The notes beneath the pieces were generated by a model that ran no database searches, was not told the origin of the DNA, and saw only the letters and a program-made list of their open reading frames with translations. This document shows, piece after piece, positions 4,074-60,341 of a DNA stretch of 64,000 bases (the stretch's first letter is position 1; every line of letters begins with the position of its first letter). Both the position numbers and the translations under genes were made by a program. Source of the DNA: Candidatus Versatilivorator sp. (GTDB lineage Bacteria; Acidobacteriota; Terriglobia; Versatilivoradales; Versatilivoraceae); assembly GCA_965207735.1 (NCBI GenBank), contig OZ242296.1:662723-726722 (forward strand), given 5' to 3'.

Positions 4074-4652
4074 ATGACCCGGTTCGAGCAGGAAAAGTGG
4101 CAAGCCAGGTACGCCTCATTGCCCTCCGGCCCACTGCCCCTTAAACCTGCGGCTCGCTGGCTTCACCGGTGGGAAGGGGTCATTCCGCCAGGACGGGTAG
4201 TCGATCTGGCCGTTGGCCTGGGAGGGAACGCCTTTCACCTGGCGGGCCGGGGGGCCTCGGTGCTGGGGATCGATGTCTCGGAAAGGGCGGCCAGGGCACT
4301 GCGCCGGACGGCCTTGGACCGTGGCTTAAGGCTTGAGTTGCTCGTCGCCGATTTGGATGTTTTCCCGCTGCCGCCGAACCGCTTTGATGCGATCCTTTGC
4401 TTTTTCTATCTCAATCGACGGCTCTTTCCCCAAATCAGGAGCAGCCTCAACCCTGGGGGTGTCCTGCTGATGGAGGCTTTCGTGACCGATCCGCAACGGC
4501 CGGAAAAGGATCAACCCGGCTACCGGCTGGCCGAGAGGGAACTGCTGGCGGCCTTCGATGATTGGGAAATTCTCGACTATGCCGAGGGCATCCAGCGGGG
4601 AGTTGGCCCCTCGCAGGTGGCTACCGCCCGCATTTGCGCCAGGAAACCCTAG
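4074..4652 (+). CDS. Class I SAM-dependent methyltransferase (TehB-like fold)
   Basis: VVDLAVGLGGNAFHLAGRGASVLGIDVS (motif I) plus a DAILCFFYL motif. Its TAG stop codon is the CTAG abutting the IS1182-like element. Confidence 0.65.
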   Translation: MTRFEQEKWQARYASLPSGPLPLKPAARWLHRWEGVIPPGRVVDLAVGLGGNAFHLAGRGASVLGIDVSERAARALRRTALDRGLRLELLVADLDVFPLPPNRFDAILCFFYLNRRLFPQIRSSLNPGGVLLMEAFVTDPQRPEKDQPGYRLAERELLAAFDDWEILDYAEGIQRGVGPSQVATARICARKP

Positions 4653-6232
4653 GAGTCTGCGCCGCAGAAAACCCAGGCAGGGCTGAATGATAGAATAACG
4701 GGCTTAGAGAGATCATGGGAGGTGGTGAATGGGGACGAGGTTTCGCCCGTATGAACCGAAGCAGTTGTTGATGCTGCCGCCGGACCTGCGGGAGTGGGTA
4801 CCGGAAGGACACTTGGCGCATCAGGTGAGCGAGTTGGTGGATGGGCTGGAGTTGGGAGCGTTCTACCGGCGGTATGAAGAGGACGGGAGGCGCAACTCGC
4901 CCTATGAGCCGGGGATGATGGTGAAGGTATTGATCTACGCCTATGCGACGGGGGTGTTCTCGTCGCGCAAGATTGCCAGGAAGCTGGAGGAGGACGTGGC
5001 GTTTCGGATGCTGGCGGCGGGGAACTTTCCGCAGCATCGGACGCTGTGCGAGTTTCGCCGGCGGCACTTGAAGGACTTCAAGCGGCTGTTGGTGCAAGTG
5101 GTGCGTTTGGCGCGGGAGATGGGGATGGTGGGGTTGGGGCGATTGGGGATCGACGGGACGAAGGTGCGGGCGAACGCGAGCCGGCGCAAGGCGATGAGCT
5201 ATGGTCGGATGAAGGAGCGGGAGCGGCAACTGAAGGCAGAGATCCATGAGTTGTTGAAGAAGGCGCGGCGGGAGGACCGGGAGGAAGATGAGCGGTACGG
5301 GGAAGACCGGCGTGGGGATGAGTTGCCCGAGGAGTTGCGGCGGCGGGAGGACCGGCTGGCGGCGATCGAGGCGGCCAAGCAGCGGCTGGAGGCGGCCCAG
5401 CGGGAGGCCGATGAGGAGCGGGGGCGCAAACCGGGACAGGACCGCAACCCGAAAGCACGACGGCCCTACAAGCGGGCCTACGGAGAACCGGAGGAGAAGG
5501 CGCAGAGTAATTTCACCGATCCGGAAAGCCGGATCATGAAGACTTCCACCGAGGGGTTCCAGCAATGCTACAACGCGCAGGTGGCGGTGGACGGAGAGCA
5601 CCAGATCATTGTGGCCACCGAGGTAACGGCGCAGGCGAGCGATCAGGGGCAGATGATGGAGTTGCTGGAGGAGGTGGAGGAGAGCTTCCAGGAGATACCG
5701 AAACAGGTGCTGGCGGATGCGGGCTACTGCAATGAGGCGGACTTGCAGGCCCTGGAAGAGAGAGGAGTGGACGGTTATGTTGCGCTGGGGCGCGAGGGGA
5801 AGCGGGCGGTAGAGATCGATCCCAGGAAGCATCCGGCCAAGAGTCGTATGAGGAAGAAGCTGGCCAGCCTAGCCGGTCAGGTGGAGTATCGGCGGAGGAA
5901 GTGGATTGCCGAAGCCCCTCATGGGTGGATCAAGGAGGGGCTGGGATTCCGACGGTTCAGTCTGCGGGGCTTGCAATCAGTGCAGGGGGAGTGGGACTTG
6001 GTGTGTCTGGCCCTCAACATCAAGAGGATGAGTGCGCTGATGGCAGCCTGAAGCAAGGGATTTCCACCCAATACCCAGGACCACGGAGGTCCTCAACCGC
6101 CCATTGTGGGAGCCCACAGGGCCCTTGAGACTCTATCAACGCCCAAGCGGCTCCCAAGCACTCCTTGGAACCGGCCTTGCGCAGTAGCCTCTCGCTCTTG
6201 AACTTTCCGAAATCGTCCTGCGGCGCAGACTC
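4653..6232 (+). mobile_element. IS1182-like (IS5 superfamily) insertion sequence, copy 1, with 15-bp perfect TIR GAGTCTGCGCCGCAG and flanked by CTAG on both sides
   Basis: The terminal inverted repeat is read at both ends. The internal sequence is nearly identical to the inverted copy at 12905-14474. CTAG sits at 4649-4652 and 6233-6236. Confidence 0.8.
4729..6051 (+). CDS. IS1182-family DDE transposase (440 aa)
   Basis: N-terminal MGTRFRPYEPKQLLMLPPDLREWVPEGHLA signature of IS1182-group transposases, a coiled-coil Arg/Glu-rich linker and a C-terminal DDE region (VLADAGY). A second copy at 13086-14408 differs by a few residues. Confidence 0.85.
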   Translation: MGTRFRPYEPKQLLMLPPDLREWVPEGHLAHQVSELVDGLELGAFYRRYEEDGRRNSPYEPGMMVKVLIYAYATGVFSSRKIARKLEEDVAFRMLAAGNFPQHRTLCEFRRRHLKDFKRLLVQVVRLAREMGMVGLGRLGIDGTKVRANASRRKAMSYGRMKERERQLKAEIHELLKKARREDREEDERYGEDRRGDELPEELRRREDRLAAIEAAKQRLEAAQREADEERGRKPGQDRNPKARRPYKRAYGEPEEKAQSNFTDPESRIMKTSTEGFQQCYNAQVAVDGEHQIIVATEVTAQASDQGQMMELLEEVEESFQEIPKQVLADAGYCNEADLQALEERGVDGYVALGREGKRAVEIDPRKHPAKSRMRKKLASLAGQVEYRRRKWIAEAPHGWIKEGLGFRRFSLRGLQSVQGEWDLVCLALNIKRMSALMAA

Positions 6233-6236
6233 CTAG

Positions 6237-6490
6237 CCCGCATTTTTCACCAGGGGGCATGATCATGGCGCAGGGTTTTTCCCTTCGACGCGTGCTCGCG
6301 ACCGAAGAGCGTAGCGGTCACTACGCGCGAGGGAGCATGTGCGCGCTGAAGGGAAAAAGACAAGCCAGGGCATGCCCAGCGCCGTCTGTTACCCACAAGC
6401 CCTTACAATGGAGCCAATCAACGTACTGAAGACGTACTGAAGATAAACTGCTTTTCGGCATGGCAACAGCGACCTGGTGAGAAATGCGGG
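6237..6490. repeat. 254-bp transposase-less derivative of the IS1380-family element with TIR CCCGCATTT(C/T)TCACCAGG, flanked by CTAG
   Basis: Left end CCCGCATTTTTCACCAGG and right end CAGCGACCTGGTGAGAAATGCGGG. The subterminal 120 bp match the 3' part of the element at 14479-15488 and of 60221-60341. Confidence 0.7.
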
Positions 6491-6540
6491 CTAGCCCGAT
6501 GCCGTCGGGCCTTTGACGATGCGCGGGACTTTGGGGGTGG

Positions 6541-11761: not shown

Positions 11762-12904
11762 ATGTTCAGCGAAATTTCGGGATTCATCAACTACCTTACG
11801 GTTGAAAAAGGACTTTCCAGAAACACCTTGGCCGCCTACAAGTCGGATTTGGCAAAGCTCCAGCAATTTCTGGAAAAGCGGAAACTCTCGTTGGCATCTT
11901 TGACTCCGAGCCAGCTGCAGGATTTTGTTCAGACACTTCAGCAGGACGCCGGCTCCGCTTCAAGAGTTCTGTCCGAGCTCCAGAAATATCTGAAGAAGCG
12001 GAAACTGTCTCCGGCATCTTTGACTCCGAGTCGGCTGCAGGATTTTGTTCAGACACTTCAGCAGGACGCCGGCTCCGCTTCAAGAGTTCTGTCCGAGCTC
12101 CAGAAATATCTGAACAAGCGGAAACTGTCTCTGGCATCTTTGACTCCGAGCCAGCGGCAGGAATTCATCCGGAAGCTTCAACTCGACGCCCGCTCCATTT
12201 CAAGAATTCTGTCGGCGGTTCGCGGCCTTTGCCGTTGGATGGTCCTGGAGGGAAGGCGAACCGAGGACCCGTCCGAGAACCTGGAATTGCCGAAAGTCTG
12301 GAAAAGGCTGCCAGGGGTTCTGTCCTTGAAACAGGTGGAAGCCCTGCTGTCCCAGCCCGACCGAAAGAAGCCCCGCGGCCCCAGAGACAAGGACGTATTA
12401 CTTAGAGACAAAGCCATGCTGGAAGTGCTCTACGCGACGGGTCTGCGTGTTTCGGAGCTGGTGTCTCTGGAAGTCAGGGACCTGCATAGCGATCGCGACC
12501 GGGGGTACCTGCACTGTCAGGGAAAGGGTGGAAAGGTGCGGGCCGTTCCCCTGGGCAACTCAGCCAAGGAGGCATTGGAGCAGTACATGGAGCACGCCCG
12601 GCAGAGTTTGCTCAAGGGGAAGGGTTCTTCCCTGATCTTTGTCACCAACCGAGGGCGGGGGATGACCCGCCAGGGGTTTTGGAAGATGATCCGGCGTTAC
12701 GGAGAACTGGCGGGGATCCGGTCGTCTCTCAAGCCCCATGCCTTGCGCCATTCCTTTGCGACCCATCTCTTGCAGCGGGGGGCCGACCTGCGGGCGGTGC
12801 AGATGATGCTCGGTCACTCCGATCTCTCCACCACCCAGATCTATACCCATGTATTGAAAGAGCGCCTGAAAGGGATCTACCGAGAGCACCACCCCAGGGC
12901 CTAG
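11762..12904 (+). CDS. xerD: Tyrosine recombinase XerD-like, 380 aa, enlarged by an in-frame 120-bp tandem triplication in the N-terminal core-binding domain
   Basis: C-terminal catalytic domain with R...HxxR...Y and the XerD-type tail STTQIYTHVLKERLKGIYREHHPRA. N-terminal LTPSQLQDFVQTLQQDAGSASRVLSELQKYLKKRKLS is repeated. Its TAG stop is the CTAG abutting IS1182 copy 2. Confidence 0.8.
   Translation: MFSEISGFINYLTVEKGLSRNTLAAYKSDLAKLQQFLEKRKLSLASLTPSQLQDFVQTLQQDAGSASRVLSELQKYLKKRKLSPASLTPSRLQDFVQTLQQDAGSASRVLSELQKYLNKRKLSLASLTPSQRQEFIRKLQLDARSISRILSAVRGLCRWMVLEGRRTEDPSENLELPKVWKRLPGVLSLKQVEALLSQPDRKKPRGPRDKDVLLRDKAMLEVLYATGLRVSELVSLEVRDLHSDRDRGYLHCQGKGGKVRAVPLGNSAKEALEQYMEHARQSLLKGKGSSLIFVTNRGRGMTRQGFWKMIRRYGELAGIRSSLKPHALRHSFATHLLQRGADLRAVQMMLGHSDLSTTQIYTHVLKERLKGIYREHHPRA
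11878..12237 (+). repeat. 120-bp tandem repeat, 3 units, inside xerD; units 1-2 differ at 4-5 positions and unit 3 is diverged
   Basis: Period of 120 nt read directly (11881 vs 12001 vs 12121). Units 1 and 2 differ at only 4-5 positions over the 120-nt period. Confidence 0.85.
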
Positions 12905-14474
12905 GAGTCTGCGCCGCAGGACGATTTCGGAAAGTTCAAGAGCGAGAGGCTACTGCGCAAGGCCGGTTCCAAGGAGTGCTTGGGAGCCGCTTGGGCGTTG
13001 ATAGAGTCTCAAGAGCCCTGTGGGCTCCCACAATGGGCGGTTGAGGACCTCCGTGGTCCTGGGTATTGGGTGGAAATCCCTTGCTTCAGGCTGCCATCAG
13101 CGCACTCATCCTCTTGATGTTGAGGGCCAGACACACCAAGTCCCACTCCCCCTGCACTGACTGCAAGCCCCGCAGACTGAACCGTCGGAATCCCAGCCCC
13201 TCCTTGATCCACCCATGAGGGGCTTCGGCAATCCACTTCCTCCGCCGATACTCCACCTGACCGGCTAGGCTGGCCAGCTTCTTCCTCATACGACTCTTGG
13301 CCGGATGCTTCCTGGGATCGATCTCTACCGCCCGCTTCCCCTCGCGCCCCAGCGCAACATAACCGTCCACTCCTCTCTCTTCCAGGGCCTGCAAGTCCGC
13401 CTCATTGCAGTAGCCCGCATCCGCCAGCACCTGTTTCGGTATCTCCTGGAAGCTCTCCTCCACCTCCTCCAGCAACTCCATCATCTGCCCCTGATCGCTC
13501 GCCTGCGCCGTTACCTCGGTGGCCACAATGATCTGGTGCTCTCCGTCCACCGCCACCTGCGCGTTGTAGCATTGCTGGAACCCCTCGGTGGAAGTCTTCA
13601 TGATCCGGCTTTCCGGATCGGTGAAATTACTCTGCGCCTTCTCCTCCGGTTCTCCGTAGGCCCGCTTGTAGGGCCGTCGTGCTTTCGGGTTGCGGTCCTG
13701 TCCCGGTTTGCGCCCCCGCTCCTCATCGGCCTCCCGCTGGGCCGCCTCCAGCCGCTGCTTGGCCGCCTCGATCGCCGCCAGCCGGTCCTCCCGCCGACGC
13801 AACTCCTCGGGCAACTCGTCCCCACGCCGGTCTTCCCCGTAGCGCTCATCTTCCTCCCGGTCCTCCCGCCGCGCCTGCTTCAACAACTCTTCGATCTCTT
13901 CCCTCAGTTGCCGCTCCCGCTCCCGCATCCGACCGTAGCTCATCGCCTTGCGCCGGCTCGCGTTCGCCCGCACCTTCGTCCCGTCGATCCCCAATCGCCC
14001 CAACCCCACCATCCCCATCTCCCGCGCCAAACGCACCACTTGCACCAACAGCCGCTTGAAGTCCTTCAAGTGCCGCCGGCGAAACTCGCACAGCGTCCGA
14101 TGCTGCGGAAAGTTCCCCGCCGCCAGCATCCGAAACGCCACGTCCTCCTCCAGCTTCCTGGCAATCTTGCGCGACGAGAACACCCCCGTCGCATAGGCGT
14201 AGATCAATACCTTCACCATCATCCCCGGCTCATAGGGCGAGTTGCGCCTCCCGTCCTCTTCATACCGCCGGTAGAACGCTCCCAACTCCAGCCCATCCAC
14301 CAACTCGCTCACCTGATGCGCCAAGTGTCCTTCCGGTACCCACTCCCGCAGGTCCGGCGGCAGCATCAACAACTGCTTCGGTTCATACGGGCGAAACCTC
14401 GTCCCCATTCACCACCTCCCATGATCTCTCTAAGCCCGTTATTCTATCATTCAGCCCTGCCTGGGTTTTCTGCG
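12905..14474 (-). mobile_element. IS1182-like insertion sequence, copy 2 (inverted relative to copy 1), flanked by CTAG on both sides
   Basis: Reverse complement is nearly identical to 4653-6232 and carries the same TIR GAGTCTGCGCCGCAG. CTAG at 12901-12904 and 14475-14478. Confidence 0.8.
13086..14408 (-). CDS. IS1182-family DDE transposase (440 aa), copy 2
   Basis: Identical to the 4729-6051 product except for about 5 substitutions in the coiled-coil linker (MRERERQLREEIEELLKQ vs MKERERQLKAEIHELLKK). Confidence 0.85.
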   Translation of the reverse strand: MGTRFRPYEPKQLLMLPPDLREWVPEGHLAHQVSELVDGLELGAFYRRYEEDGRRNSPYEPGMMVKVLIYAYATGVFSSRKIARKLEEDVAFRMLAAGNFPQHRTLCEFRRRHLKDFKRLLVQVVRLAREMGMVGLGRLGIDGTKVRANASRRKAMSYGRMRERERQLREEIEELLKQARREDREEDERYGEDRRGDELPEELRRREDRLAAIEAAKQRLEAAQREADEERGRKPGQDRNPKARRPYKRAYGEPEEKAQSNFTDPESRIMKTSTEGFQQCYNAQVAVDGEHQIIVATEVTAQASDQGQMMELLEEVEESFQEIPKQVLADAGYCNEADLQALEERGVDGYVALGREGKRAVEIDPRKHPAKSRMRKKLASLAGQVEYRRRKWIAEAPHGWIKEGLGFRRFSLRGLQSVQGEWDLVCLALNIKRMSALMAA

Positions 14475-14478
14475 GCGC

Positions 14479-15488
14479 AGACTCCTAGCCCGCATTTCTC
14501 AGTGCGCCATGGAAAGGCGCCTTCTTCCAACGGGTGCGAAACCCGTCCAACAACTGTCGCTCCGGTTGGTAGCAGCCAGGGCGGATCATGGAGGTAACGA
14601 TATGGTCTGAAGCCCTCTGGTGTCAAAGGGCCGCTTAAGGCGGTTCAGCGAGCATGCGGGCCGGAACGCGAGTGAACGTCGAGCAGGCCTCGAAACGGGC
14701 AATGCGGGGGCCGACCCACCTGAGAAATGGGGAAGGCCGAAGACGGAGGGGGAAGCGAGCGACGCGGGCACCCCTTTGGACCCGCCGGGGTAGTGGCGCT
14801 GGCACGCATGGAAGGGGAAGAAGGCAGCAACATGGGAAGCCCTGTGGGTGGTGAGGCACGCACCGAACCGGAAGCTCGCGAGAGTCAGTCTAGGCCGACA
14901 GGGTGGCGGAGAGGCCTGTAGTACCGGAGAAGCCGGGTAATACCGGTGGAGGGAAGGGGCCTCAGGTGAGGAGCGGTGACCGAAGGGGGAAGGGTCCCGG
15001 GAGTGGCGAAAGCCTGAAACCCCGACCAAAAAAGGGCCGGAGACTCCGGAAGCATCACATGCAAAAGTGAAAGGGTCGTCGGAGGAGGACGGCGTCGTCA
15101 GGGCATCAACAGGCCTGGCGGCAACCCGGGAGCGGAAGTGGATGGAGTGGGGGACGGGTGCCAATCCCATAGGAGTCGTCCACGGATGCGAGCGGGGACC
15201 TGTGTGCGAGACGCATGATCCCACTGGAGAGCCGAGATGCGGGAAAACCGCACGTCCGGTTCGGAGAGCGGGGACTGGAAACGTGATAAGGGAGCCGGAC
15301 TGAGGCCCGAAGCGAAAGCGACGGAATAGCCACCGGACCCTATAGTCAACGCGCCAGTCCTCGACTCTACCCAAGGGGCATGCCCAGAGCTGTCTGTTAC
15401 CCGCAAGCCCTTACCAGAGAGCCAATCAAAGTACTGAAGATAAACTACTTTTCGTCATGGCACCAGCGACCTGGCGAGAAATGCGGGC
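14479..15488. repeat. IS1380-type transposase-less element (same TIRs as 6237-6490) carrying an ORF-less group II intron inserted in its left TIR
   Basis: Left TIR CCCGCATTTCTCA is interrupted, then continues CCAAGGGGCATGCCCAG. The right 120 bp match the short element at 6237-6490 and end ...CAGCGACCTGGCGAGAAATGCGGG. Confidence 0.7.
14492..15371 (+). ncRNA. ORF-less group II intron (about 880 nt), copy 1
   Basis: 5' end GUGCG lies immediately after the exon sequence ...CCCGCATTTCTCA. ATGCGGG (14701-14707) and TGAGAAATG (14720-14728) are exact complements of IBS2 CCCGCAT and IBS1 CATTTCTCA. Domain V GAGCCGAGAUGCGGGAAAACCGCACGUCCGGUUC (about 15247-15280) has the AGC triad, G-U wobble, AC bulge and GAAA loop. 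The 3' end is ...CUCUAC and is followed by a CCA exon. No ORF spans more than a few dozen codons on this strand. Confidence 0.75.
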
Positions 15489-16972
15489 TAAGCGGGCCCG
15501 TGTCCCGCGGGCAGGCTGGATCCAGCCAGGGGAATCGAGACCAGAAAAGATGTTCCTCGGCCAACCTGGCTTTCCACGGCAATGGTGCCCGCGTGGTCGT
15601 CGATGATCTTTTTGGTAATCGACATTCCCAAGCCGAACCCCGTCGGCTTGCCTTGGGTGAAGAAGGGCTGGAAGAGGGTGGCTTGAGCGTGGGCGGGAAT
15701 GCCGCCGCCATTGTCGGTGAGCCGGATGCAGGCTTGATCCTCCCGGGTTTCGGTGCGAATCGAGAAGGTGCCTCCACCCTTGAGCGCATCCTTGGCATTG
15801 ACCGCGATATTCAGCAGAGCCCGCCTGAATTTGTCCTTGTCGACGGTGACCCGGGCATCGCAGTTGAACTCCCGAACAAAACGGGTGCCCTTGCCTTGGA
15901 ACAGGGCCTGGATCTCAATGCAGCAATTCTTCAGAACCTGATCGAGGCTGCAGGTTTCCGGCGACATGCAGGTCTTCTTGTCGTTGGCGAACTGCAGGAT
16001 CTCGTCCAGCATCCGTTCCATGCGCTCGACCTCGAAGTGGATGAATGCCAGGCATTCCTGCTTTTTGTCAGCCGACAGGTCGAAGTCACTCATGACGGAA
16101 GCAAAACCCTTGATGACGGTGATGGGCGTTCGGCAGTCGTGGACGATGGTATTGACCATGGTGCCGACCGCCGCCAGCTTTTCCGTCTTGATTCGTTCCT
16201 CCTGACTCTGCCTGATGCGGTCCATCATGTGGTTGAAGTGGTTGGCCAGTCCCTCCAGCTCGTCACCCGTCTTGACTTGAATTCGGTGAGAAAGGTCGCC
16301 CGCGGAGGCCTTCAAGGCTCCGCCGACTATGGTGGAAACGGGGACTGTGATCCGGTTGGCCAAGATACAGGCGCCCACAATTCCCGTCACCGCGGCCGCC
16401 AGGCCCACCTGCAGGATGACGAGCTGTATTTCCCATACCTGCTGATTCATGCCGTCGGTCGAGAAGCCCAGGCGGACCGTTCCCCAACGTCCCGGAGACT
16501 CGGGCGACAGAACCGGGACCGTGAAATCCAAGACCGGGTCGAAAGAAGAAACCTTGCTTGGGGCGAATCGGAGTCGACGAATGAGGGGTTTGCGGGCCTG
16601 CAGGGATTGCCGGGCCTCGGCTCCCGTTGGATGGGTGTCGATCAGGGAACTGTCTTCGGAATGGGCTGCCACCTTGCCTTCCTTGTCATAGACGATGACA
16701 TAGAGGAGGTCGCTTTCCCCTCGAGCCAGCCGTGCGTTGACTTGGAGCATGCGGTAGTTGTAGGTCTGCAGATGGGTCAAGTTTGCTCCGCTGGCGAAGA
16801 TTCGGGCGATGGCGATCCCGCGCTGCCGGGTGTGGTCGCGAATGACTTGGTGCATGCGGTGACTCAGCAAACCAATTGCCGGCAGGAGGACCGAAGCAAG
16901 TAAGAGGACCGTAGCCGATATCAACTTCGTCCTCAGGTTGATTCGGGAAAAAGCGCGCATGTAGGCCTCCAA
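15488..16972 (-). CDS. Sensor histidine kinase (HAMP-HisKA-HATPase_c)
   Basis: Two TM segments with a periplasmic region, HAMP, H-box IVHDCRTPITVIKGF and N/G1/G2 boxes (NAKDAL, DNGGGIP, GFGLGM). Its TAG stop lies in the terminal CTAAGC of the adjacent IS1380-type repeat element. Confidence 0.8.
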   Translation of the reverse strand: MEAYMRAFSRINLRTKLISATVLLLASVLLPAIGLLSHRMHQVIRDHTRQRGIAIARIFASGANLTHLQTYNYRMLQVNARLARGESDLLYVIVYDKEGKVAAHSEDSSLIDTHPTGAEARQSLQARKPLIRRLRFAPSKVSSFDPVLDFTVPVLSPESPGRWGTVRLGFSTDGMNQQVWEIQLVILQVGLAAAVTGIVGACILANRITVPVSTIVGGALKASAGDLSHRIQVKTGDELEGLANHFNHMMDRIRQSQEERIKTEKLAAVGTMVNTIVHDCRTPITVIKGFASVMSDFDLSADKKQECLAFIHFEVERMERMLDEILQFANDKKTCMSPETCSLDQVLKNCCIEIQALFQGKGTRFVREFNCDARVTVDKDKFRRALLNIAVNAKDALKGGGTFSIRTETREDQACIRLTDNGGGIPAHAQATLFQPFFTQGKPTGFGLGMSITKKIIDDHAGTIAVESQVGRGTSFLVSIPLAGSSLPAGHGPA

Positions 16973-26494: not shown

Positions 26495-26603
26495 GGGGCA
26501 GGCCACCGATCGCTGTCGGCTCTTCAGCTAGCCCGCAATCGTCGCCTTCGATTGCTAGCCACGACCACCGGCCACGCCCTACTGCGTACTCAAAGTCACT
26601 CCT

Positions 26604-27613
26604 TTATCGATTAAACCGTGACGATTGCCCTGCTTCCTCCAGGAAGGTGGCGGTGCGCAGGTAGTTTCCGTCGCTACGGATGGTGACGGCCCCCTGTCGG
26701 TCGGTGCGGAACAATTGCACGGGAAGTGTCTTCAAACGGCGAACCACCTCGGGGTGAGGATGGCCGAAGGGGTTGACCTTACCCGCCGAAATAACGGCAA
26801 GCACCGGATTGACCCGGTTCAGGAAGAGTAAGGAGGATGAGGTCCAGCTTCCATGGTGGGCTACCTTCAAGACATCGGCTTGGAGGCCACGTCCGAGGGC
26901 TGCCAGGCATTCCTCGACCGGCTCCTCGATATCACCGGTCAACAAGAAGGACCTGCGCCCGAAGGTCATTCTCAAAACCAGGGAATCGTTGTTGAGATTT
27001 CCGTCGGAGGGGCCGCAACCCGGATTGAGAAATTCCAGTCCGGCCCCATGAACATTGAGCGTGTCCCCGGCTTGAAAAGCTCGGATCCTGAGGCCGCGTG
27101 CTTCCGCCTTTTTGAGCAGTGCGAGCAGATCGGGGGAAACGGGGCCGTTTCCAAGCCAGAATTCCTTGACCTCGAAGTTGTCCAGAATAAACCCCAGACC
27201 TCCCATATGGTCCTGGTGGGCATGGGTCAGGATCACCGCTTCCAGCGATCGGACGCCGCGGCTCCGGAGATAAGGCGCGACCACCTGCTCACCGACGTCA
27301 AAAGCGGACCCCACGATCTCGGATCGGTGGCCGGCCCCGGACCAACTGCCACCGCCATCGACCAGAGTGTGCCCGCCGTTCGGCCAGCCTACCAGGATGC
27401 TGTCTCCTTGCCGCACATCCAGAAACGTCAAACTCATCTCCTGCGATCCGGATTTGACCCCTTGTCCGCCTGAAAGCAGGACCGTCAGGGATGCCAGCCA
27501 GATGACGGCGCCGGACAGCCTCAGGAGGCGAGGGACTCTTGTGGCGACCCACAGGGCCAGGGAGCCGTAGTAGGCCAACACCCAGGCCAGGGGAACCTGG
27601 GGCAGGGAAAAGC
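26604..27613 (-). pseudogene. comEC: comEC, C-terminal metallo-beta-lactamase fragment; gene split by IS insertion
   Basis: HAHQDHMGG MBL motif in a ComEC/Rec2-type domain. The ORF-track N-terminus (MLPTSGEKCGLGFS) is read from the IS terminal repeat. After removing the insertion (27618-30188, 2571 bp, a multiple of 3), the reading frame is continuous with 30189-31787. Confidence 0.7.
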
Positions 27614-27712
27614 CTAGCCCGCATTTCTCACCAGAGGTAGGAAGCATCGGTTCTCGGAATCTGGTAAAATACTCTTGTCTAAGGAGTTAACCAGATTCTT
27701 AAAGGAGAACCG

Positions 27713-29080
27713 ATGCCGACACAGTGTAACACCAAACCCCTGGAGTTTGAACCCCACGGCCGCCGCCGCGTGGTGGCTGATTTCGACGGCGGTCCCATCA
27801 CTTCCGATGCCGGCTCCCTGCTGTTGCGCCGGGTGGATCGGGGCTTATCTCTCTCCGACCAGGTGGCCGACTGTTTCACCGATCACCGCGACCCCAAGCG
27901 GACCCAATACAGCCTGCGCACCCTCATCGCTCAGCGCATCCGTGGCATCGCCCTCGGCTACGAGGATCTCATCGACCACGACCAACTCCGTCACGATCCC
28001 CTCATGGCCTTGTTTTCAGAGAAAGGCCGTCGTGGCGACTCGCCTCCCCTGGCAGGCAAGAGCACCCTCAACCGACTCGAACACGCCCCCACCCAAGGCC
28101 CCACCCGCTACCACAAGATTGACCACGACCCCGAGGCCTTGCAAGCCCTCCTGGTGAAACTGTTTCTGCAAGCCCATCCCCAACCCCCCGATGAGATCAT
28201 CCTCGACCTCGACGCCACTGACGATCCCCTCCACGGGGAACAAGAGGACCGCTTCTTCCACGGCTACTACCGAGGCTACTGCTACCTGCCCCTCTACATC
28301 TTCTCGGGCCGCCATCTGCTCTCGGCCCTGCTCAGACCCGCCAACATCGATGCCTCCGCCGGCGCTCTGGAGCAGGTCCAGCGCATCGTCTCCCGCCTAC
28401 GGCGTGTCTGGCCTCAGGTCAAGATCCTGCTGCGGGCCGACTCCGGCTTTGCCCGTGAGGAGCTGATGGGGTGGTGTGAGCAGCATCAGGTCGACTATCT
28501 CTTCGGCCTGGCCCGCAACTCCCGCCTCCAAGACGCCATCGCCCCCGAGTTGGCTCAGGCCCAGGCCCTCTCAGACCAGCAACAGCAGCCCGCCCGGATC
28601 TTCACCGACCTCTCCTACCGCACTCACAAGAGCTGGTCCCACGAGCGCCGCCTGGTCGCCAAAGCCGAGGTCCTGCCCCGCGGCCCCAACCCCCGCTTCG
28701 TCGTCACCTCTCTGTCGGTCCAGGACTACCCCGCCCAGTTCCTCTATGAGAAGATCTACTGTGCCCGCGGTGAGATGGAAAACCGCATCAAGGAGCAGCA
28801 ACTCGACCTGTTTGCCGATCGCACCTCCACCCACTCCTTCCGGGCGAATCAGCTCCGGCTCCTGATGACCTCTTTCGCCTATGTGCTGGTGGAGGGCTTG
28901 CGCCGGCGGGCGCTGCAATCCACCTGCCTGGCCCGGGCCACCGTCGGTTCCATCAGACTCAAACTGCTCAAGATCGGCGCTCAGGTCACCATCTCGGTCC
29001 GTCGCATCAAGGTCGCCATGGCTTCCGGATGTCCTTACCAGAGGGAGTTCCGCATCGCTTGGGCTCACCTGCCGCCCTGA
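27713..29080 (+). CDS. IS1380-family DDE transposase (455 aa)
   Basis: Typical IS1380 architecture and motifs (ILDLDATDDPLHGEQE...LRADSGFA...CARGEMENRIKE...IRLKLLKIGAQV). Confidence 0.85.
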   Translation: MPTQCNTKPLEFEPHGRRRVVADFDGGPITSDAGSLLLRRVDRGLSLSDQVADCFTDHRDPKRTQYSLRTLIAQRIRGIALGYEDLIDHDQLRHDPLMALFSEKGRRGDSPPLAGKSTLNRLEHAPTQGPTRYHKIDHDPEALQALLVKLFLQAHPQPPDEIILDLDATDDPLHGEQEDRFFHGYYRGYCYLPLYIFSGRHLLSALLRPANIDASAGALEQVQRIVSRLRRVWPQVKILLRADSGFAREELMGWCEQHQVDYLFGLARNSRLQDAIAPELAQAQALSDQQQQPARIFTDLSYRTHKSWSHERRLVAKAEVLPRGPNPRFVVTSLSVQDYPAQFLYEKIYCARGEMENRIKEQQLDLFADRTSTHSFRANQLRLLMTSFAYVLVEGLRRRALQSTCLARATVGSIRLKLLKIGAQVTISVRRIKVAMASGCPYQREFRIAWAHLPP

Positions 29081-29302
29081 GGTGCCCTGACCCGACCGTC
29101 ACTCCTGGCCCTTGAAGACGCGGCCACCAGGCCCGATGGCAGAGGTGTCGCTGTTTTCGAGGGAAAATGCCGCCTGAGGTTCCTCGGAGAGCCTCAGAAG
29201 CCTCCGCTGTTGGCCTTTGCCTACCGATCCAGCCACCAACGTTGTTAAACTCGGCCTCAAATGCCTCCATGGCCCCTTTTACCGCTCCTGTGCGAACTCT
29301 GG

Positions 29303-30171
29303 GTAGAGTCGAGGACTGGCGCGTTGACTATAGGGTCCGGTGGCTATTCCGTCGCTTTCGCTTCGGGCCTCAGTCCGGCTCCCTTATCACGTTTCCAGTC
29401 CCCGCTCTCCGAACCGGACGTGCGGTTTTCCCGCATCTCGGCTCTCCAGTGGGATCATGCGTCTCGCACACAGGTCCCCGCTCGCATCCGTGGACGACTC
29501 CTATGGGATTGGCACCCGTCCCCCACTCCATCCACTTCCGCTCCCGGGTTGCCGCCAGGCCTGTTGATGCCCTGACGACGCCGTCCTCCTCCGACGACCC
29601 TTTCACTTTTGCATGTGATGCTTCCGGAGTCTCCGGCCCTTTTTTGGTCGGGGTTTCAGGCTTTCGCCACTCCCGGGACCCTTCCCCCTTCGGTCACCGC
29701 TCCTCACCTGAGGCCCCTTCCCTCCACCGGTATTACCCGGCTTCTCCGGTACTACAGGCCTCTCCGCCACCCTGTCGGCCTAGACTGACTCTCGCGAGCT
29801 TCCGGTTCGGTGCGTGCCTCACCACCCACAGGGCTTCCCATGTTGCTGCCTTCTTCCCCTTCCATGCGTGCCAGCGCCACTACCCCGGCGGGTCCAAAGG
29901 GGTGCCCGCGTCGCTCGCTTCCCCCTCCGTCTTCGGCCTTCCCCATTTCTCAGGTGGGTCGGCCCCCGCATTGCCCGTTTCGAGGCCTGCTCGACGTTCA
30001 CTCGCGTTCCGGCCCGCATGCTCGCTGAACCGCCTTAAGCGGCCCTTTGACACCAGAGGGCTTCAGACCATATCGTTACCTCCATGATCCGCCCTGGCTG
30101 CTACCAACCGGAGCGACAGTTGTTGGACGGGTTTCGCACCCGTTGGAAGAAGGCGCCTTTCCATGGCGCAC
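29303..30171 (-). ncRNA. ORF-less group II intron, copy 2, inserted in the right TIR of the IS1380-family IS
   Basis: Reverse complement is nearly identical to 14492-15371. The 5' exon ...CTAGCCCGCATTTCTCA|GUGCG is the same, and the 3' exon CCAGAGTTCGCACAGG is the IS terminal-repeat continuation. The proline-rich ORFs 29167-30087 (+) and 14586-15374 (-) are antisense artefacts of this element. Confidence 0.75.
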
Positions 30172-30188
30172 TGAGAAATGCGGGCTAG

Positions 30189-31787
30189 CCAGGGGATTGC
30201 GGAAAAAGCGCGGTTGAGGCTCAGAAGACCTTCAGCCAACAGGCCGGAGGTCCAACCGAGCAGCCAGGCGGTCTGCGGGGACAGACCGGCCCAGGCCAGA
30301 TAGGAAAATCCCAAGGGTATGATCATGGCGACCAGGGGAATGACCAGCACATTGAGGAAGATCACGGGCAGCACCACCCGGTGGAAATAGACCGTTAGCG
30401 GAATCAGGAGCACCGCCTGAATGGCGATGGAAACCAGGAAAATATCCACAAGGCCCAAGGCGAGCTTGTAGGGCCAGGCAATCAGACCGAGGCGGATGGC
30501 CGGTCGAGTAATGCCCACAAACTCCCCCAATCTGGAGCCGCGGAGTCGCAAGCCAACCCGCCAGGCGGCCAGTCGGGGGGGGAAGTTGCGATCCAGATGG
30601 ACGGATTCCAAAGACCCGAGAGCCTCCTTGTAAGGCTGAGTGGTGCGGCGCAGCAGAGGAAGGCCCATCGCGGCGATCGCCAGCGCGGCCGAGAAGGAGA
30701 GCTGGAACCCCGAGTCGTGCAGCCATCCGGGATTTTTCAGGAGAATCCACCAGGCCGCCAGGCACAAAGAGTGAAGCAGGTTGCGGTCCCGGTCGAAATA
30801 GAGAGCCGTCAGGAACAGACAACCCATGACCGAGGCTCGTTCAATGGCAACCTGTCCCTCGGCCACCAGGTTGTAAAGGGCGATCGCTCCCATGGTCAAG
30901 GTCAGGACCAACCAGCGTGGAAGCCCCAGTCGTTTGAGCAAGGCAAAGACCATGGCAATCATCATCCCGACATGCAGTCCCGAAACCACCAGTACGTGGT
31001 AGAGTCCGTTCAGTCGAAAACGGGACTCGGTTTCCTCCCCAAGGTCGCTGTCGTCTCCGAGCAGGACGGCTTTCAGAACGGCCCTGGCCGGGTCGGATGC
31101 CGGAAGCGCATCCAGTGCACGAAAACAGCCTTGTCGCATGCGGTTGCCAAGAGCCTGCCAGGACCATTCCTCTTGCCGGGTGAGACAGGTCAGCAGGAGC
31201 GGATCCTTCAAATTTCCAGTCAGGAAGATGCCCCGAAGTTCCAGGTAGGACCGGTAGTCGAACTGCCCCGGATTGTTGAAATTCTCCGGTCTTCGAAGAT
31301 AGGCAAGGAACTCGACCCGGTCGCCCGCCTGCGGGGGTGGCGAAGAGTCCAGAGCAATGTCCGGCGAGTTGAGGTGAAGCCGGATCTTTCCACGGGTCTC
31401 AAAGCCTGCGAACCGGTTTGCCAGGTGGTGGACTTCCACCTCCAGTCGGATGCCGTGGCCCTTTCCTTCCGAAACTCGAGCGCAAATTCCCCTCACCCGA
31501 CAGGGAGCCGTCAGGTCAAGCGCATCGGATCGGACCAGGGTTCGAAGGTGGTTGGGATCGAACTGGAGTTGGTGGATGGATGTCCAGGCCAATCCCGACA
31601 GGCCAAAGGCCAGGAGCAGGACGATCCGGCAGCTCCAGTCTCTGTCCTTGACCCAGAGAATCCATGAGAGGCACAGCGCCAGAGCACCGGCAGCCCATAG
31701 GAATTCCGGGGAGCTGGTGACCTGGGCATGAGCGGCAACACCCAGGCAGAAAGCCACCGTCGGCAACAGAAGTGGAGTGTGCAACAT
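30189..31787 (-). pseudogene. comEC: comEC, N-terminal fragment (DUF4131 plus competence/ComEC channel domain)
   Basis: Multi-TM protein containing RFRLNGLYHVLVVSGLHVGMM, the ComEC competence-domain signature. The ORF-track C-terminus runs into the IS/intron. Confidence 0.7.
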
Positions 31788-37515: not shown

Positions 37516-38335
37516 GGTTCAAGGCGGATTTCGAAATCTGCAGGCATGTGGTCTCGGAGCACAGCCTGGAGCGAGGCCTGCCGGATCCTAGGTCCGCCAA
37601 TCAACGAAGGGGAAAAAGACTCCCACCAAGGGGCACGTAGAAGCGCACAGGAAGACGAAGGGACTGATTGAGGGTTTGACTGTTGGAGGAGTCGGTGGGT
37701 TCAAAGGGACATGACTCGGCATGGCAGGACTCGATCGCCTGCAAAGAATCGCTGCAGCCGGGGGGCGGCCGTCACCAGACTCGATGGGGACAATTTCCTA
37801 ACGGTCCCGGAAACCTGTGGATCGAATGCGTCGAAACACCCAATAGGCGACCAACACCAGCCCTGCTGCCAGAACCCATTCGAAGTGAGCGTGAGGAATG
37901 TCATTGAGCGCGTGCGCCGTTAGAATCAGGGCCTTCATGGTTTGGTTTTCTCCGTTCTTCAAGTGAACCCGACCGAAAACCCATTATATATCGAGTTACA
38001 GTGGAAAGGGTTCATACCATTTTGGGTGGCTGTGAAAGACGCGCTTCAGAAAGAGTGGTCGTTTCCGGTCCTCCAGGCAGAACGGCCGATAAGATATCTT
38101 ATGTAAACTTTTATTAAAACGCGCAGACAGTGGGGTCAGCCGGGGAATTTTCGGGGAATCCGGGTTCCCTGCCGAGCGGGTCAGGTACCTCGCGAGAAGA
38201 TGCTGGAGATTAATCGACTTCGATAATGTATCCATCCACCCGGTGAGAAATGCGGGATAAAATGGAAATGGCTCGAGGTTGGTGGAATGCGCCAGCCGCT
38301 CCGATCAACGTTGAAACTGTTGCCAGGCGTTCGGA

Positions 38336-44989: not shown

Positions 44990-46207
44990 TCATTCGACCA
45001 GTTCCAGGATTCCCGCGGCGCCCATTCCGCCGCCGATGCACAGGGTGACCATTCCGAACTGAACCCCTCGCCGCCGCATCTCGCCAAGCAGGGTCGCCGT
45101 CAGTTTGGCGCCGGTGCAACCCAGCGGGTGGCCCAGGGCGATCGCTCCCCCGTTGACGTTGACCCGGTCCGGATCCAGGCCGGATTGGCGGATGACCGCC
45201 AGCGCTTGAGCCGCGAATGCTTCATTCAATTCAATCAGGCCGATCTGAGAGAGCTCGAGACCCGCCTGCTTCAGAGCCTTGGGAATGGCCTGGACGGGGC
45301 CGAGACCCATCTCCTCGGGCGGCACCCCGGCAGTGGCGAAGGAGAGGAACCGTCCCAGGATCGTCCAACCTCGATCCCTGGCCGTGTTCCGGGAGGCCAG
45401 CACCACGGCGGCAGCGCCGTCACTCATGGGCGAGGAGTTTCCGGCGGTGATGGAACCGCTGGCGTGGAAGGCCGGCTTGAGCTGAGCCAGTGCCGGCAGG
45501 CTCGTGTCCTTGCGCGGACCTTCGTCCCGGTCAAAACGGGTGGGGCCTGTTCCCTTCTCTGCCTGTCCATTGCCATCGCCGCCGAGAGAATCCGGTGCGG
45601 CTCGGCCGAGGCCGTTCGGGGTCAGCTCCAGCGGCACGATCTCATCCCGAAAGCGTCCCTCCTCCATGGCCTGGATCGCTTTGCGATGGCTCCGGAGGGC
45701 AAAGCGGTCCTGTTGCTCGCGGCCGATCTCGTACTTGCGAGCCAGGTTTTCGGCGGTCATTCCCATGTTGAGGTAGACATCCGGATAGGAATCCGCCAGA
45801 TCGGGGTTGGGCGAGAAATGGTGCCCGGCCCTGGGGATCAGGCTCATGCTTTCCGTTCCTCCAGCCAGGATGACCTCGGCCGAGCCGCACCGGATTCTTT
45901 CGGCGGCGAAGGCAATGGACTGCAGTCCCGAGGCGCAGAAGCGGTTGACGGTGACAGCGGAGACCGAAACCGGCAGACCGGCCCTCAAGCCGGCGATGCG
46001 GGCCACGTTCATTCCCTGCTCCGCCTCCGGCATGGCGCACCCCAGGATGACGTCTTCGATTTCCCCGGTCTTCAACCCGGGGACGCGCCGGACGGCTTCC
46101 GAGATGGCGACGGCAGCCAGGTCGTCGGGGCGGGTATGTCTCAGGGCTCCCTTCTTGGCTTTCCCGACGGGAGTCCTGGCGGCGCTGACGATCACAGCCT
46201 CTTTCAT
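44990..46207 (-). CDS. fadA: Acetyl-CoA C-acyltransferase (thiolase)
   Basis: Active-site Cys region ([12 protein letters not shown]) and a C-terminal [15 protein letters not shown] motif. Confidence 0.85.
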
Positions 46208-58900: not shown

Positions 58901-59019
58901 TGTTGTCCGTCAGCACGTTCCCGGTGAGGAATGCGGGCTCCCGCGTTGTGTTATGATTCGCTGAAGTTTCTGGACGCTGATTAGCCAGAGTTTGACCCCT
59001 TCGAGGTGGAACAGCCGTC

Positions 59020-60220: not shown

Positions 60221-60341
60221 CCCGCATTTCTCACAGGAGGGCGCACCCCGTGTAACCGAAAACCGTCCAATTGCACCAACAAGTTGTTGAAAACAAACGG
60301 TGGCTCCACGATTCATCCAGCGACCCGGCGAGAAGTGCGGG
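60221..60341. repeat. 121-bp miniature element with the IS1380-type TIRs (CCCGCATTTCTCACAGG ... CAGCGACCCGGCGAGAAGTGCGGG)
   Basis: Both TIR-like ends and the conserved subterminal CAGCGACC box are read directly. This is the third transposase-less derivative of the IS1380 element seen in the window. Confidence 0.6.

Follow-up and report, generated by a model that had tools for sequence, protein, structure and literature searches.

Mobile DNA is a known hiding place of group II introns. In the window, by which we mean the whole 64-kb stretch of DNA that was analysed, elements of very different size end in the same terminal repeat and two of them contain a group II intron, raising the question of how these elements are related to each other and how the intron came to lie in them. 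We read the region as a set of nested mobile elements, in which an IS1380-family insertion sequence (IS), MITEs and a subclade of group II introns that probably homes on the tips of the terminal repeats can be distinguished, and we put the probability of this reading at about 85%.

Results

Terminal repeats in the window

A search of the window for the 17-mer CCCGCATTTCTCACCAG with up to three mismatches gave eight sites against 0.26 expected by chance, and none of 100 shuffled sequences reached eight (Table 1). The original prediction had also listed eight ends of 17–19 bp. Six of those were borne out, but the two at 14489 (earlier given as 14479) and at 30184 on the reverse strand retain the first 13 nt of the repeat only; the very next base begins a group II intron, so that the 17–19-bp sequence is not carried by these two ends. 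The solitary remnants suspected near 38241 and 58921 proved to be real right-end remnants. The degenerate match that had been proposed at 4626–4648, inside the 3′ end of a methyltransferase gene, consists only of the 9-mer CCCGCATTT and CCAG and does not rise above chance; together with another occurrence of the 9-mer at 22967, it is best regarded as a chance match in coding sequence (two strays against 0.85 expected).

Table 1 Coordinates of the features in the window. Positions are counted from the first nucleotide of the window.
Feature	Position	Strand	Basis or remark
Sites of the 17-mer CCCGCATTTCTCACCAG	6237(+), 6490(-), 15487(-), 27618(+), 38256(-), 58937(-), 60221(+), 60341(-)		
IS1182-family IS, 1580 bp, repeat GAGTCTGCGCCGCAG, CTAG duplication	4653..6232	+	adjoins left end of 254-bp MITE
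Long-form MITE, 254 bp	6237..6490	+	flanks CTAG (6233-6236) / CTAG (6491-6494)
IS1182-family IS, second copy, 99% identical, opposite orientation	12905..14484	-	adjoins left end of intron-bearing MITE
Short-form MITE, 13 + 117 = 130 bp, with intron copy A in left repeat	14489..15487	+	flanks CTAG (14485-14488) / CTAA (15488-15491)
ORF-less group II intron, copy A, 869 nt (GUGCG...CUAC)	14502..15370	+	Rfam, fold
Probable EBS2 CGGGC, copy A	14696..14700	+	pairs with G of CTAG + CCCG (positions -14 to -10)
EBS1 loop UGAGAAA, copy A	14721..14727	+	complementary to repeat nt 7-13 (UUUCUCA); fold, covariation
Domain 5, copy A	15229..15262	+	RF00029; fold
comEC 3′ part, split by IS	26604..27617	-	ORF restored on excision
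Target-site duplication of IS, left CTAG	27614..27617	.	flank sequence
IS1380-family insertion sequence	27618..30184	+	2567 bp as found, 1698 bp minus intron; repeats at both ends, CTAG on both sides
IRL, left terminal inverted repeat, CCCGCATTTCTCACCAGAG, 19 bp	27618..27636	+	sequence
IS1380-family DDE transposase, 455 aa	27713..29080	+	PF13701 E 8e-150; NF033539
IRR inner 6 nt (CCAGAG), moved 869 bp inward; 3′ exon of intron copy B starts here	29297..29302	-	
ORF-less group II intron, copy B, 869 nt	29303..30171	-	Rfam; convergent with transposase gene
IRR outer 13 nt, 5′ exon of intron copy B	30172..30184	-	sequence
Target-site duplication of IS, right CTAG	30185..30188	.	flank sequence
comEC 5′ part, split by IS	30189..31787	-	transcription direction runs into right repeat and intron copy B
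Solo MITE right-end remnant	38240..38256	-	65% identity to MITE right end over 60 nt
Solo repeat-like remnant, 2 mismatches	58921..58937	-	repeat search
Degenerate short-form MITE, 121 bp	60221..60341	+	flanks CAAG/CTAT, no target duplication

The insertion sequence in comEC

The largest of the elements lies in comEC, and removing it in silico together with one CTAG (2571 = 3 × 857 bp) restored a single ComEC ORF of 870 aa, which proves an insertion with a 4-bp duplication; the CTAG claimed earlier as its target duplication is exact on both flanks. The transposase, whose ORF is intact, scored 410.6 bits with the family profile NF033539 (cut-off 180) and 499 bits with PF13701 (cut-off 34.7), in agreement with the earlier assignment of the stretch to the IS1380 family. 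Its best relative, found in a genome copy, is 98% identical, and a copy on plasmid pKF715A of Pseudomonas putida KF715 showed 64% identity. According to the ISfinder description, IS1380-family elements are about 1.55–2.07 kb long and have one ORF. The present IS at first seems too long for this, but once the 869-nt intron that interrupts its right repeat is taken away, the remaining 1698 bp with one ORF agree well with the family. The 19-bp repeat can then be reconstructed at both ends and begins with CC, as in the IS1380 family, and the duplication of 4 bp fits the 4–5 bp that characterise its members. Judging from the profiles, length, repeats and target, the element is an ordinary new member of the IS1380 family.

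The short elements are MITEs of a separate lineage

The sizes previously given for the elements agree with our measurements of 254, 999, 121 and 2567 bp; without its intron, the 999-bp element is a MITE of 130 bp, which is 90% identical to the 254-bp MITE across their common 130 nt. Coding capacity is very small, the 254-bp copy having a longest open frame of 63 codons and the 121-bp copy one of 40. A subterminal box, CAGCGACC(T/C)GG(T/C)GAGAA(A/G)TGCGGG, is common to the three short elements and missing from the IS, just as had been noticed before. The CTAG duplications that had been ascribed to all of these elements are exact at the 254-bp MITE, but the 999-bp element is flanked by CTAG/CTAA and the degenerate 121-bp copy has no duplication at all (CAAG/CTAT). 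Three paired copies and two solo ends lie within the 64 kb, and many more were found in other genomes. A census that covered 118 loci in many phyla showed CTAG beside 172 of the 207 repeat ends, and the 72 pairs of ends, mostly 120–280 bp apart, had CTAG on both sides in 44 cases.

Next to these MITEs an IS1182-family element was found twice, each time at CTAG. Its transposase scored 385.6 bits with NF033551 (cut-off 270), its repeat is the 15-bp sequence GAGTCTGCGCCGCAG, and CTAG flanks both copies on both sides.

The simplest origin of the short elements would be recent internal deletion of the resident IS, as the shared 17-nt end (17 of 17 nt identical) and the CTAG target would suggest. 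We consider this unlikely, since beyond nt 17 there is zero similarity to either end of the IS, and the MITE sequence recurs, together with the subterminal box and both the long and the short form, in other genera and in another phylum. The MITEs are homologous end to end with those of other Acidobacteriota (71–87% identity; the 254-bp copy is 86–87% identical to MITEs of Ca. Versatilivorator) and of Gammaproteobacteria (65–69%), and long and short forms occur in both groups. The internal hairpin of the long form is moreover maintained by compensatory changes. The same covarying hairpin, and the strong depletion of CTAG elsewhere, could also be taken to mean that the repeats are regulatory palindromes of the host, similar to REP or BIME, with CTAG as a part of the motif and no connection to transposition. 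Such an origin is extremely improbable, because an IS with a transposase gene, which duplicated CTAG in comEC, has identical ends, and because paired inverted ends flanked by CTAG are seen in unrelated contexts and phyla. Thus, the short elements are ordinary new MITEs with an IS1380-type repeat and a CTAG target, and the comparison strongly supports the earlier view that they form an independent, non-coding, cross-phylum lineage that is not derived from the resident IS.

A group II intron splits the repeat after nucleotide 13

Both intron copies were recognised by the Rfam models for domains D1–D4 (RF02003, 80.8 bits, gathering threshold 49) and for D5/D6 (RF00029, 41.2 bits, gathering threshold 40). 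Their ends, 5′ GUGCG and 3′ CUAC, match the consensus GUGYG and AY, and in the fold of D5 and D6 (z = −6.0) the D6 helix has one bulged A close to its 3′ end. Copy A lies in the left end of a MITE and copy B in the right end of the IS; although their hosts differ, the copies are 100% identical over 869 nt, and the identity stops at the common repeat. In both, the first 13 bases of the terminal repeat precede the intron (CCCGCATTTCTCA^CC), the inner part of the repeat (CCAG...) continues directly 3′ of the intron, and the expected junction of the ligated exons is …CTAGCCCGCATTTCTCA|CCAG…. The insertion leaves the terminal 12–13 bp of the repeat at the end of the element.

Earlier the intron had been treated as internal cargo. 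It is true that it lies inside the element boundaries and that the outermost 13 nt are still terminal, as they would be if passenger DNA had made two members of the family larger (about 1 kb and 2.57 kb) with their repeats intact. This can hardly be upheld, because the repeat is split at the same base twice and resumes beyond the 3′ end of the intron, because the introns are identical whereas the elements carrying them are unrelated beyond 17 bp, and because the same junction recurs in many unrelated hosts (at least 120 contigs) with an EBS1 that matches the tip. The intron is therefore better regarded as a site-specific invader of the repeat.

Alignment with a full-length intron of 1983 nt covers nt 1–492 and 704–869 of the window introns. 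A remnant of the N-terminus of the reverse transcriptase (RT) is left at intron nt 432–623 and corresponds to protein residues 2–64 only, the remaining ORF being deleted; an RT/maturase in domain 4 is thus lacking in the window copies, but ORF-less introns are an accepted form of group II intron. No protein-encoding intron was found in the 64-kb window. These alignments indicate that the window introns are internal-deletion derivatives that have lost the RT/maturase ORF, and two identical copies in different hosts point to recent mobility.

The 9-mer UGAGAAAUG, which lies within a hairpin loop of the predicted fold, contains the presumed EBS1. The EBS1 pairing UGAGAAA : UUUCUCA is accompanied by an EBS2 pairing CGGGC : GCCCG, and the identity of the EBS1 loop is backed by covariation in sister introns. 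For EBS2 we also considered AUGCGGG (intron nt 201–207), which complements CCCGCAU, yet sister introns whose exons are unrelated conserve it as well, and the intron contains it three times, D5 included; we therefore preferred the covarying CGGGC.

Relatives of the intron and their guide sequences

The same junction was detected in at least 120 metagenome contigs and in one Bryobacterales genome, which includes a MITE with introns in both of its repeats. About 60 of the 80 analysable junction loci hold an intron of the same lineage; because the metagenome scan selected on the junction itself, these figures describe prevalence and not the share of repeat ends or introns. The remaining 20 or so hits without an Rfam intron were set aside as 5′ intron stubs or as MITE variants that merely begin with GTGCG. 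In the genome census, the intron was present in only 2 of about 135 pattern matches. Most of the metagenome introns at the junction are 1.9–2.0 kb long and encode an RT+X protein, the others being ORF-less and 0.7–1.1 kb long, and they reside in MITEs and ISs alike, in the left or the right repeat. The RT+X protein of the full-length relatives scored 355 bits with TIGR04416 (cut-off 300) and matched the GsI-IIC RT at 8e-56; it has no endonuclease domain, and RF02003 is the nearest Rfam model for D1–D4.

In a test independent of the exon, RT homologues were sampled, giving nine protein clusters, and the exons were inspected. For three of the nine clusters the insertion site is the tip of another IS1380-family repeat (CCCGACTTATTCG, CCCGGATTATTCA and CCCGCTTTATTC), and all positions of their EBS1 loops (CGAAUAA, UGAAUAA-type and GAAUAA) pair with the exon. 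In five of the six remaining clusters the exons are unrelated and the loop still matches, for example CGUUCUC : GAGAACG and GGUCGUU : AACGACC; in cluster P0252 just 4 nt of the loop pair with the exon, and from cluster P0167 the EBS1 loop was not recovered. The stem of the EBS1 hairpin varies by compensatory changes (CCCA/UGGG, CCCG/CGGG, CCGA/UCGG, CCUG/CAGG). The EBS2 segment likewise varies in step with the exon among sister introns (for example GAUCA : UGAUC), and each of the four repeat-homing types has CGGGC here. The P0180-type exon, (C)TAGCG..GAGAACG, was tried as the end of an IS and rejected, since it has no inverted partner and its main site is in a conjugative-element region. Repeat-tip exons were also absent among the relatives from cultured plasmids (Planctomyces, Buttiauxella, Bradyrhizobium, Paraburkholderia), the EBS1 loops of which match their own exons.

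The correspondence is not perfect. Some introns in the window-type repeat have an EBS1 with one to three mismatches (for example UGAAUAA, UGAUAAA and UGUUUAA), implying either that pairing is not the whole story or that these copies are ectopic or dead, and in a large sub-group with a GUGAAG loop segment, to which the Bryobacterales introns belong, no convincing EBS2 pairing was seen.

These relatives also bear on alternatives to retrohoming, namely that a DNA-level event produced the two window copies, either a segmental duplication or an exchange between repeats through recombination or gene conversion. The identity of the copies does extend over CTAG and 13 nt upstream and over 3 nt downstream, so homology for such an exchange is present, though very short. 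An origin of this kind seems very unlikely to us: homology of just 17 and 3 bp flanks the introns, the breakpoints fall precisely on the canonical ends of the intron (GUGCG...AC), the site is predicted by EBS–IBS complementarity, and diverged introns have been inserted independently at the same base in many organisms. Retrohoming of an intron subclade to the repeat tip is the reading that we retain, and the subclade looks undescribed; in the literature searched, mostly non-subscription journals, there was no report tying IS1380 ends or MITEs to group II intron homing.

Discussion

One component of the nested set is an IS1380-family IS whose repeat starts with CCCGCATTTCTCA and which entered comEC at CTAG, duplicating those 4 bp. 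The MITE lineage is probably old and seems to have spread horizontally in two forms, the long one measuring about 250 bp and the short one about 125 bp; judging from the shared ends, IS1380-family transposases that read the common tip presumably mobilise it in trans. The intron would retrohome into the repeat between nt 13 and nt 14, in every case oriented so that it reads from the tip of the element inward, and its target would be read by base pairing of EBS1 with repeat nt 7–13 and of EBS2 with the last G of CTAG and the adjoining CCCG. As the RT/maturase ORF has been lost, splicing and mobilisation of the window introns must have come from the protein of a full-length relative, which we assume to lie elsewhere in the genome. 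Because the 5′ exon is the tip of the element, transcription of the intron would depend entirely on read-through that starts outside the element, copy B for instance being reached from comEC. The intron belongs to a subclade without endonuclease whose EBS1 has diversified so as to fit the tips of no fewer than four repeats of the IS1380 type. We infer splicing and mobility of the intron, as well as any influence on transposition, from sequence features.

A transposon repeat tip serving as the exon of an intron is a relationship other than that of an intron lodged at some internal point of an IS. No other sequence of the transposon is as conserved or as multiplied as this target; the tip is identical in ISs whose transposases are just 56–64% identical, and it stands on every MITE, so that genomes of different phyla would each offer numerous copies of the target, and a horizontal transfer of an IS would always bring it along. 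Because the tip remains at the end of the element, intron-bearing ISs and MITEs may stay transposable, and in that case the retroelement would also spread by DNA transposition, as a piggy-back of a retroelement on a DNA transposon. Alternatively, the invaded end may be switched off, which would make the intron a parasite that limits its host transposon. The full proposal, namely that an endonuclease-less subclade homes on the outermost 12–13 nt of IS1380-family repeats and the G of CTAG, with its EBS1 co-diversifying, and affects its hosts in one of these two ways, is a tentative one that we think could easily fail. The system could be used to test whether a retroelement disables, regulates or rides a DNA transposon, and the four repeat variants with their four matching EBS1 loops provide a natural system for studying how guide sequences track a moving target. 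In practice, annotation pipelines will take an intron-bearing IS for an oversized or one-ended element. As a candidate structured element, the cross-phylum MITE and its covarying hairpin merit a separate study.

Among known elements, the window IS resembles other members of the IS1380 family (for example IS1380 and ISEcp1) in its single DDE transposase, its size of about 1.65–1.7 kb, its repeats starting with CC and its 4-bp duplication, and the closest annotated copy that we found, the IS of P. putida KF715 pKF715A, is 1655 bp long, has the identical tip CCCGCATTTCTCAC and is flanked by CTAG/CTAG; unlike these elements, the window IS has a group II intron inside its right repeat. The MITEs share with Correia elements, ERIC/IRU and RUP their short, non-coding nature, terminal inverted repeats, a fixed target duplication, their occurrence in multiple copies and the ability to fold into a long hairpin, but they differ in having IS1380-family ends and a CTAG target, and in forming one lineage with members of two sizes in both Acidobacteriota and Gammaproteobacteria. 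The repeat sequence itself was not found in the literature searched, which consisted mainly of journals open without subscription.

For class C (IIC) introns the recognised features are a DNA hairpin and an IBS1 of very few nucleotides, with insertion downstream of the stem, whereas recognition by the present introns looks like a long pairing of EBS1 (7 nt) and EBS2 (5 nt) and the insertion lies within one arm of the repeat. Both are nevertheless lineages specialised on a recurrent, multi-copy, palindrome-associated DNA motif instead of a gene, the class C motifs being transcription terminators and integron attC sites (PMC4424553, PMC12584367). The ORF-less introns of Thermosynechococcus elongatus and of Trichodesmium dnaN, which are served in trans by the protein of a related intron (PMC2882425, PMC12584367), are like the window introns deletion derivatives that keep the ribozyme domains; the difference is that here no helper was found in the window and the dependence in trans is inferred.

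A further parallel is RmInt1 of Sinorhizobium meliloti (class D/IIB3), which homes into ISRm2011-2 and reads its target from −13 to +1 by EBS1/2/3 pairing (PMC8914252). We did not equate the present clade with RmInt1 or class D, since in the plasmid search its proteins shared less than 56% identity with any cultured match and the best 40 of the 106 hits (E ≤ 1e-60) contained no S. meliloti plasmid, so that by these hits the proteins are not close. Both introns lack an endonuclease and have their natural homing site within a multi-copy insertion sequence, and for RmInt1 the idea has been raised that splicing of the intron could control the host IS (PMC4238363). RmInt1, however, sits inside an IS630-family element and does not use MITEs, whereas the introns described here appear to take the tip of the terminal repeat itself as their exon, in ISs and MITEs alike.

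Element ends and the IS1380-family IS

We scanned the window for the 17-mer CCCGCATTTCTCACCAG with up to three mismatches and found 8 occurrences against 0.26 expected by chance, and the 9-mer CCCGCATTT occurs 10 times (0.85 expected). Inspection of the ends delimited four bounded elements and two solo right ends (see table). The end originally placed at 14479 lies at 14489, and the full repeat claimed there and at 30184 was not borne out, just 13 nt being present at each; the degenerate match at 4627 is inside coding sequence, has no CTAG and is compatible with chance. A match at 22967, likewise in coding sequence without CTAG, is also compatible with chance. Near the 3' end of comEC, in CTAGCCCGCAATCGTC, the repeat's first six bases come right after a CTAG, possibly by chance.

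Coordinates of the features in the window
Feature	Position (strand)	Size	Flanks or copies
Element with the IS	27618-30184	2567 bp	CTAG / CTAG
Transposase ORF	27713-29080		
Long MITE	6237-6490	254 bp	CTAG / CTAG
Internal hairpin of the long MITE	6255-6380		
Intron-bearing MITE	14489-15487	999 bp	CTAG / CTAA
Short degenerate MITE	60221-60341	121 bp	CAAG / CTAT, ends degenerate
Solo right ends of the repeat	38240-38256 and 58921-58937		2
Group II intron, copy A	14502-15370(+)	869 nt	
Group II intron, copy B	29303-30171(-)	869 nt	
IS1182-family IS	4653-6232(+), 12905-14484(-)		2
Methyltransferase gene	4074-4652		
CTAGCCCGCAATCGTC	26528-26543		
Second MITE-like family	7867-8030, 57980-58195		
Intergenic repeats	7473-7694, 8174-8259, 58270-58341, 58711-58859		2-3
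Acido-Lenti-1 small RNA	58593-58638(+)		
Tandem repeat	11856-12215	120-nt unit	3
Inverted repeat	45565-45620 / 45865-45920	56 nt	arms 244 nt apart

The ORF of the IS encodes an IS1380-family transposase (PF13701, E 8e-150; NF033539, 410 bits vs a cut-off of 180). When the element and one CTAG were deleted in silico, the comEC fragments fused into a single 870-aa ORF, which demonstrates the 4-bp CTAG duplication. Taking out the intron leaves an IS of 1698 bp with a 19-bp repeat. Its transposase has thousands of relatives; the closest, at 98% identity, lies on a genome contig of 5.26 Mb. A cultured relative, a 1655-bp IS carried by P. putida pKF715A (transposase identity 64%), shares the tip CCCGCATTTCTCAC and is flanked by CTAG at both ends, and the IS of the window therefore joins a widespread subgroup that was already known. 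Both the IS and the MITEs are new members of kinds already known.

A group II intron splits the terminal repeat

Rfam detected group II domains 1-4 (RF02003, 80.8 bits) and D5/D6 (RF00029) in both intron copies, which are 100% identical; D5 folds well together with a long D6 that has a bulged A (z = -6.0). Each copy begins with GUGCG directly 3' of CCCGCATTTCTCA and ends with CUAC directly 5' of CCAG or CCAA, showing that the break in the terminal repeat falls between nt 13 and 14; the IS is interrupted in its right repeat and a 130-bp MITE in its left. The insertion keeps the 13-nt tip in place and moves the conserved CC (nt 14-15) away from it. Neither copy has an ORF: nt 1-492 and 704-869 align to a 1983-nt full-length relative, and of the reverse transcriptase only residues 2-64 remain, the ORF-less copy being a deletion derivative. 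We found no gene for the intron reverse transcriptase elsewhere within the window, and the ORF-less copies would need a helper protein encoded elsewhere in the genome. The two identical copies probably arose by retrohoming, and the intron would be transcribed solely via read-through from outside the element, comEC presumably reading into copy B.

How the intron reads its target

A domain 1 hairpin with the stem CCCA/UGGG displays the loop CCUGAGAAA, whose UGAGAAA(UG) complements (CA)UUUCUCA, the final 7-9 nt of the 5' exon. We tested whether this loop is the guide segment EBS1 on relatives found by protein, the exon not being used in their selection. Six loops of such relatives again match the exon (loop/exon end: CGAAUAA/UUAUUCG, GAAUAA/UUAUUC, CGUUCUC/GAGAACG, AGGAGGA/UCCUCCU, GGUCGUU/AACGACC and GACAUAA/UUAUGUC), which identifies the loop as EBS1, and the hairpin stem carries compensatory changes among relatives. 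A segment 3' of CGAAA acts like EBS2 (GAUCA/UGAUC; CGGGC/G+CCCG), the CGGGC pairing taking in the final G of the duplicated CTAG. AUGCGGG was ruled out as EBS2 because it is conserved in introns whose exons are unrelated. The guide segments and their exon partners are complementary and covary, and intron insertions in the repeat share one site.

Some introns at the CATTTCTCA tip have an imperfect EBS1, and EBS2 pairing was sought and not found in one large intron sub-group. Our comparison suggests that repeat variants were cross-colonised via a common EBS2 pairing. Introns in the CATTTCTCA tip at L128, L149 and similar loci of other genomes or metagenomes carry the EBS1 UGAAUAA, which is perfect for the variant CCCGGATTATTCA, as at L263.

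Occurrence in other genomes and metagenomes

Scanning one genome per species with CTAG and the 13-mer, followed by the repeat or the intron start, returned at least 118 loci, those among the matches listed being from Gammaproteobacteria, Acidobacteriota (including Ca. Versatilivorator and Bryobacterales), Planctomycetota, Nitrospirota and others. Among these listed matches, CTAG flanks 172 of 207 ends and both sides of 44 of the 72 repeat pairs; the pairs are mainly 120-280 bp long and are thus MITEs. Also among them, at two loci of a Bryobacterales genome the same base is occupied by a diverged intron. One of these MITEs is invaded in both repeats, by an ORF-less intron and by a longer copy whose RT fragments are frameshifted and bear YADD and X-domain motifs.

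In metagenomes the junction AG-CCCGCATTTCTCA-GTGCG was found on at least 120 contigs, a scan that gauges presence and not frequency, and about 60 of the 80 analysable junction loci among the matches listed hold the same intron lineage. Intron lengths at the listed loci cluster at 1.91-2.0 kb and 0.7-1.1 kb; the former introns encode an RT+X protein with no endonuclease domain (TIGR04416, 355 bits), the best solved relative of which is the GsI-IIC RT. Among the matches listed, the introns interrupt the left or right repeat of two kinds of host, MITEs (119-213 bp) and ISs (1646-1725 bp), and although the IS transposases are just 56-62% identical to that of the window, the repeat tip is identical.

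Of nine protein clusters sampled independently of the exon, three lie at tips of other IS1380-family repeats, namely CCCGACTTATTCG (a complete IS, CTAG/CTAG), CCCGGATTATTCA and CCCGCTTTATTC, in each case after nt 12-13 and with a matching EBS1. The others occupy relaxase/conjugative-element sites or other ISs, so that homing to repeat tips is a trait of a subclade and not of the whole clade. A triple nesting was seen at metagenome locus L259 (805-6094), where an IS110-family element interrupts the intron in the right repeat of an IS1380-family IS (tip CCCGACTTATTCG, CTAG/CTAG).

The MITE lineage

The 130-bp and 254-bp MITEs are 90% identical, barring a 113-bp internal module and an 11-bp duplication, and the 121-bp MITE is about 65% identical. 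All three have the subterminal box of the original prediction, and in all of them resemblance to the IS ends at nt 17. Over its full length the 254-bp MITE aligns to Ca. Versatilivorator MITEs at 71-87%, to a Terriglobia MAG at 83% and to Pseudomonadales/Gammaproteobacteria MAGs at 65-69%; both phyla also have short forms that lack the same segment. The long form has a hairpin of ~155 nt in which 19 of 60 pairs show two-sided changes, vs 7.8 ± 1.9 when shuffled; 96% of cells are paired, and slid controls gave at most 4 two-sided pairs. These cross-phylum alignments, shared forms and hairpin covariation uphold the proposal of a separate non-autonomous lineage and support one that is independent, old and horizontally spread, on whose ends the transposase would act in trans.

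In alignment A1 the internal hairpin covaries strongly across Acidobacteriota and Gammaproteobacteria. The G.U pairs of the long-form hairpin are conserved on this strand only, a hint of a strand-specific RNA or single-stranded-DNA structure; the hairpin has no Rfam match.

CTAG sites and other repeats

CTAG is strongly depleted in the window, with 28 sites where base composition predicts 229 and a Markov model 69; 7 of the 28 flank described mobile elements and 4 lie inside them, making the elements a major source of CTAG. The IS1182-family copies, 99% identical and oppositely oriented, are each inserted exactly at the CTAG flanking a MITE's left end, and the stop codons of the methyltransferase gene and of a recombinase gene ending at 12903 lie within those CTAGs. 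In a third case (metagenome locus L161, 1-1543; transposase 56% identical) such an IS adjoins an intron-bearing repeat tip. This siting may reflect a true preference for CTAG beside CCCGC or an effect of CTAG scarcity, and the pair in the window could go back to a single insertion that landed between head-to-head MITEs, with a later inversion between the IS copies.

The inverted ends of the second MITE-like family, AACATGGATGCACAG / CTGTGCATC(C/G)ATGTT, are not related to those of the IS1380 type. Intergenic repeats such as CAGCGCCTTAGTG..CTTCGTGCCCCTTCGTGG.. are also present, one about 60 nt from the solo end at 58921. The Acido-Lenti-1 RNA (RF01687, 45.7 bits) fits an acidobacterial origin. 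The tandem copies are 100/92/81% identical to the first, and the arms of the inverted repeat are 89% complementary.

Comparison with known systems

Introns within ISs are well known. In literature that included few subscription journals, we found no paper in which intron homing is tied to IS1380 ends or to MITEs, nor one that gives the repeat sequence. RmInt1 in ISRm2011-2 reads target positions -13 to +1 (PMC8914252), and according to reviews bacterial introns reside mostly in mobile DNA, class C being specialised on terminators and attC sites (PMC12584367, PMC4424553). A sister intron at L276-L279 (EBS1 GGUCGUU) occupies the conserved site ..TACTACGC.AAGAACGACC^ near the starts of trwC-type relaxase genes, recalling Ll.LtrB in the ltrB relaxase gene. 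The subclade that homes to repeat tips appears to be a new variant among known group II introns.
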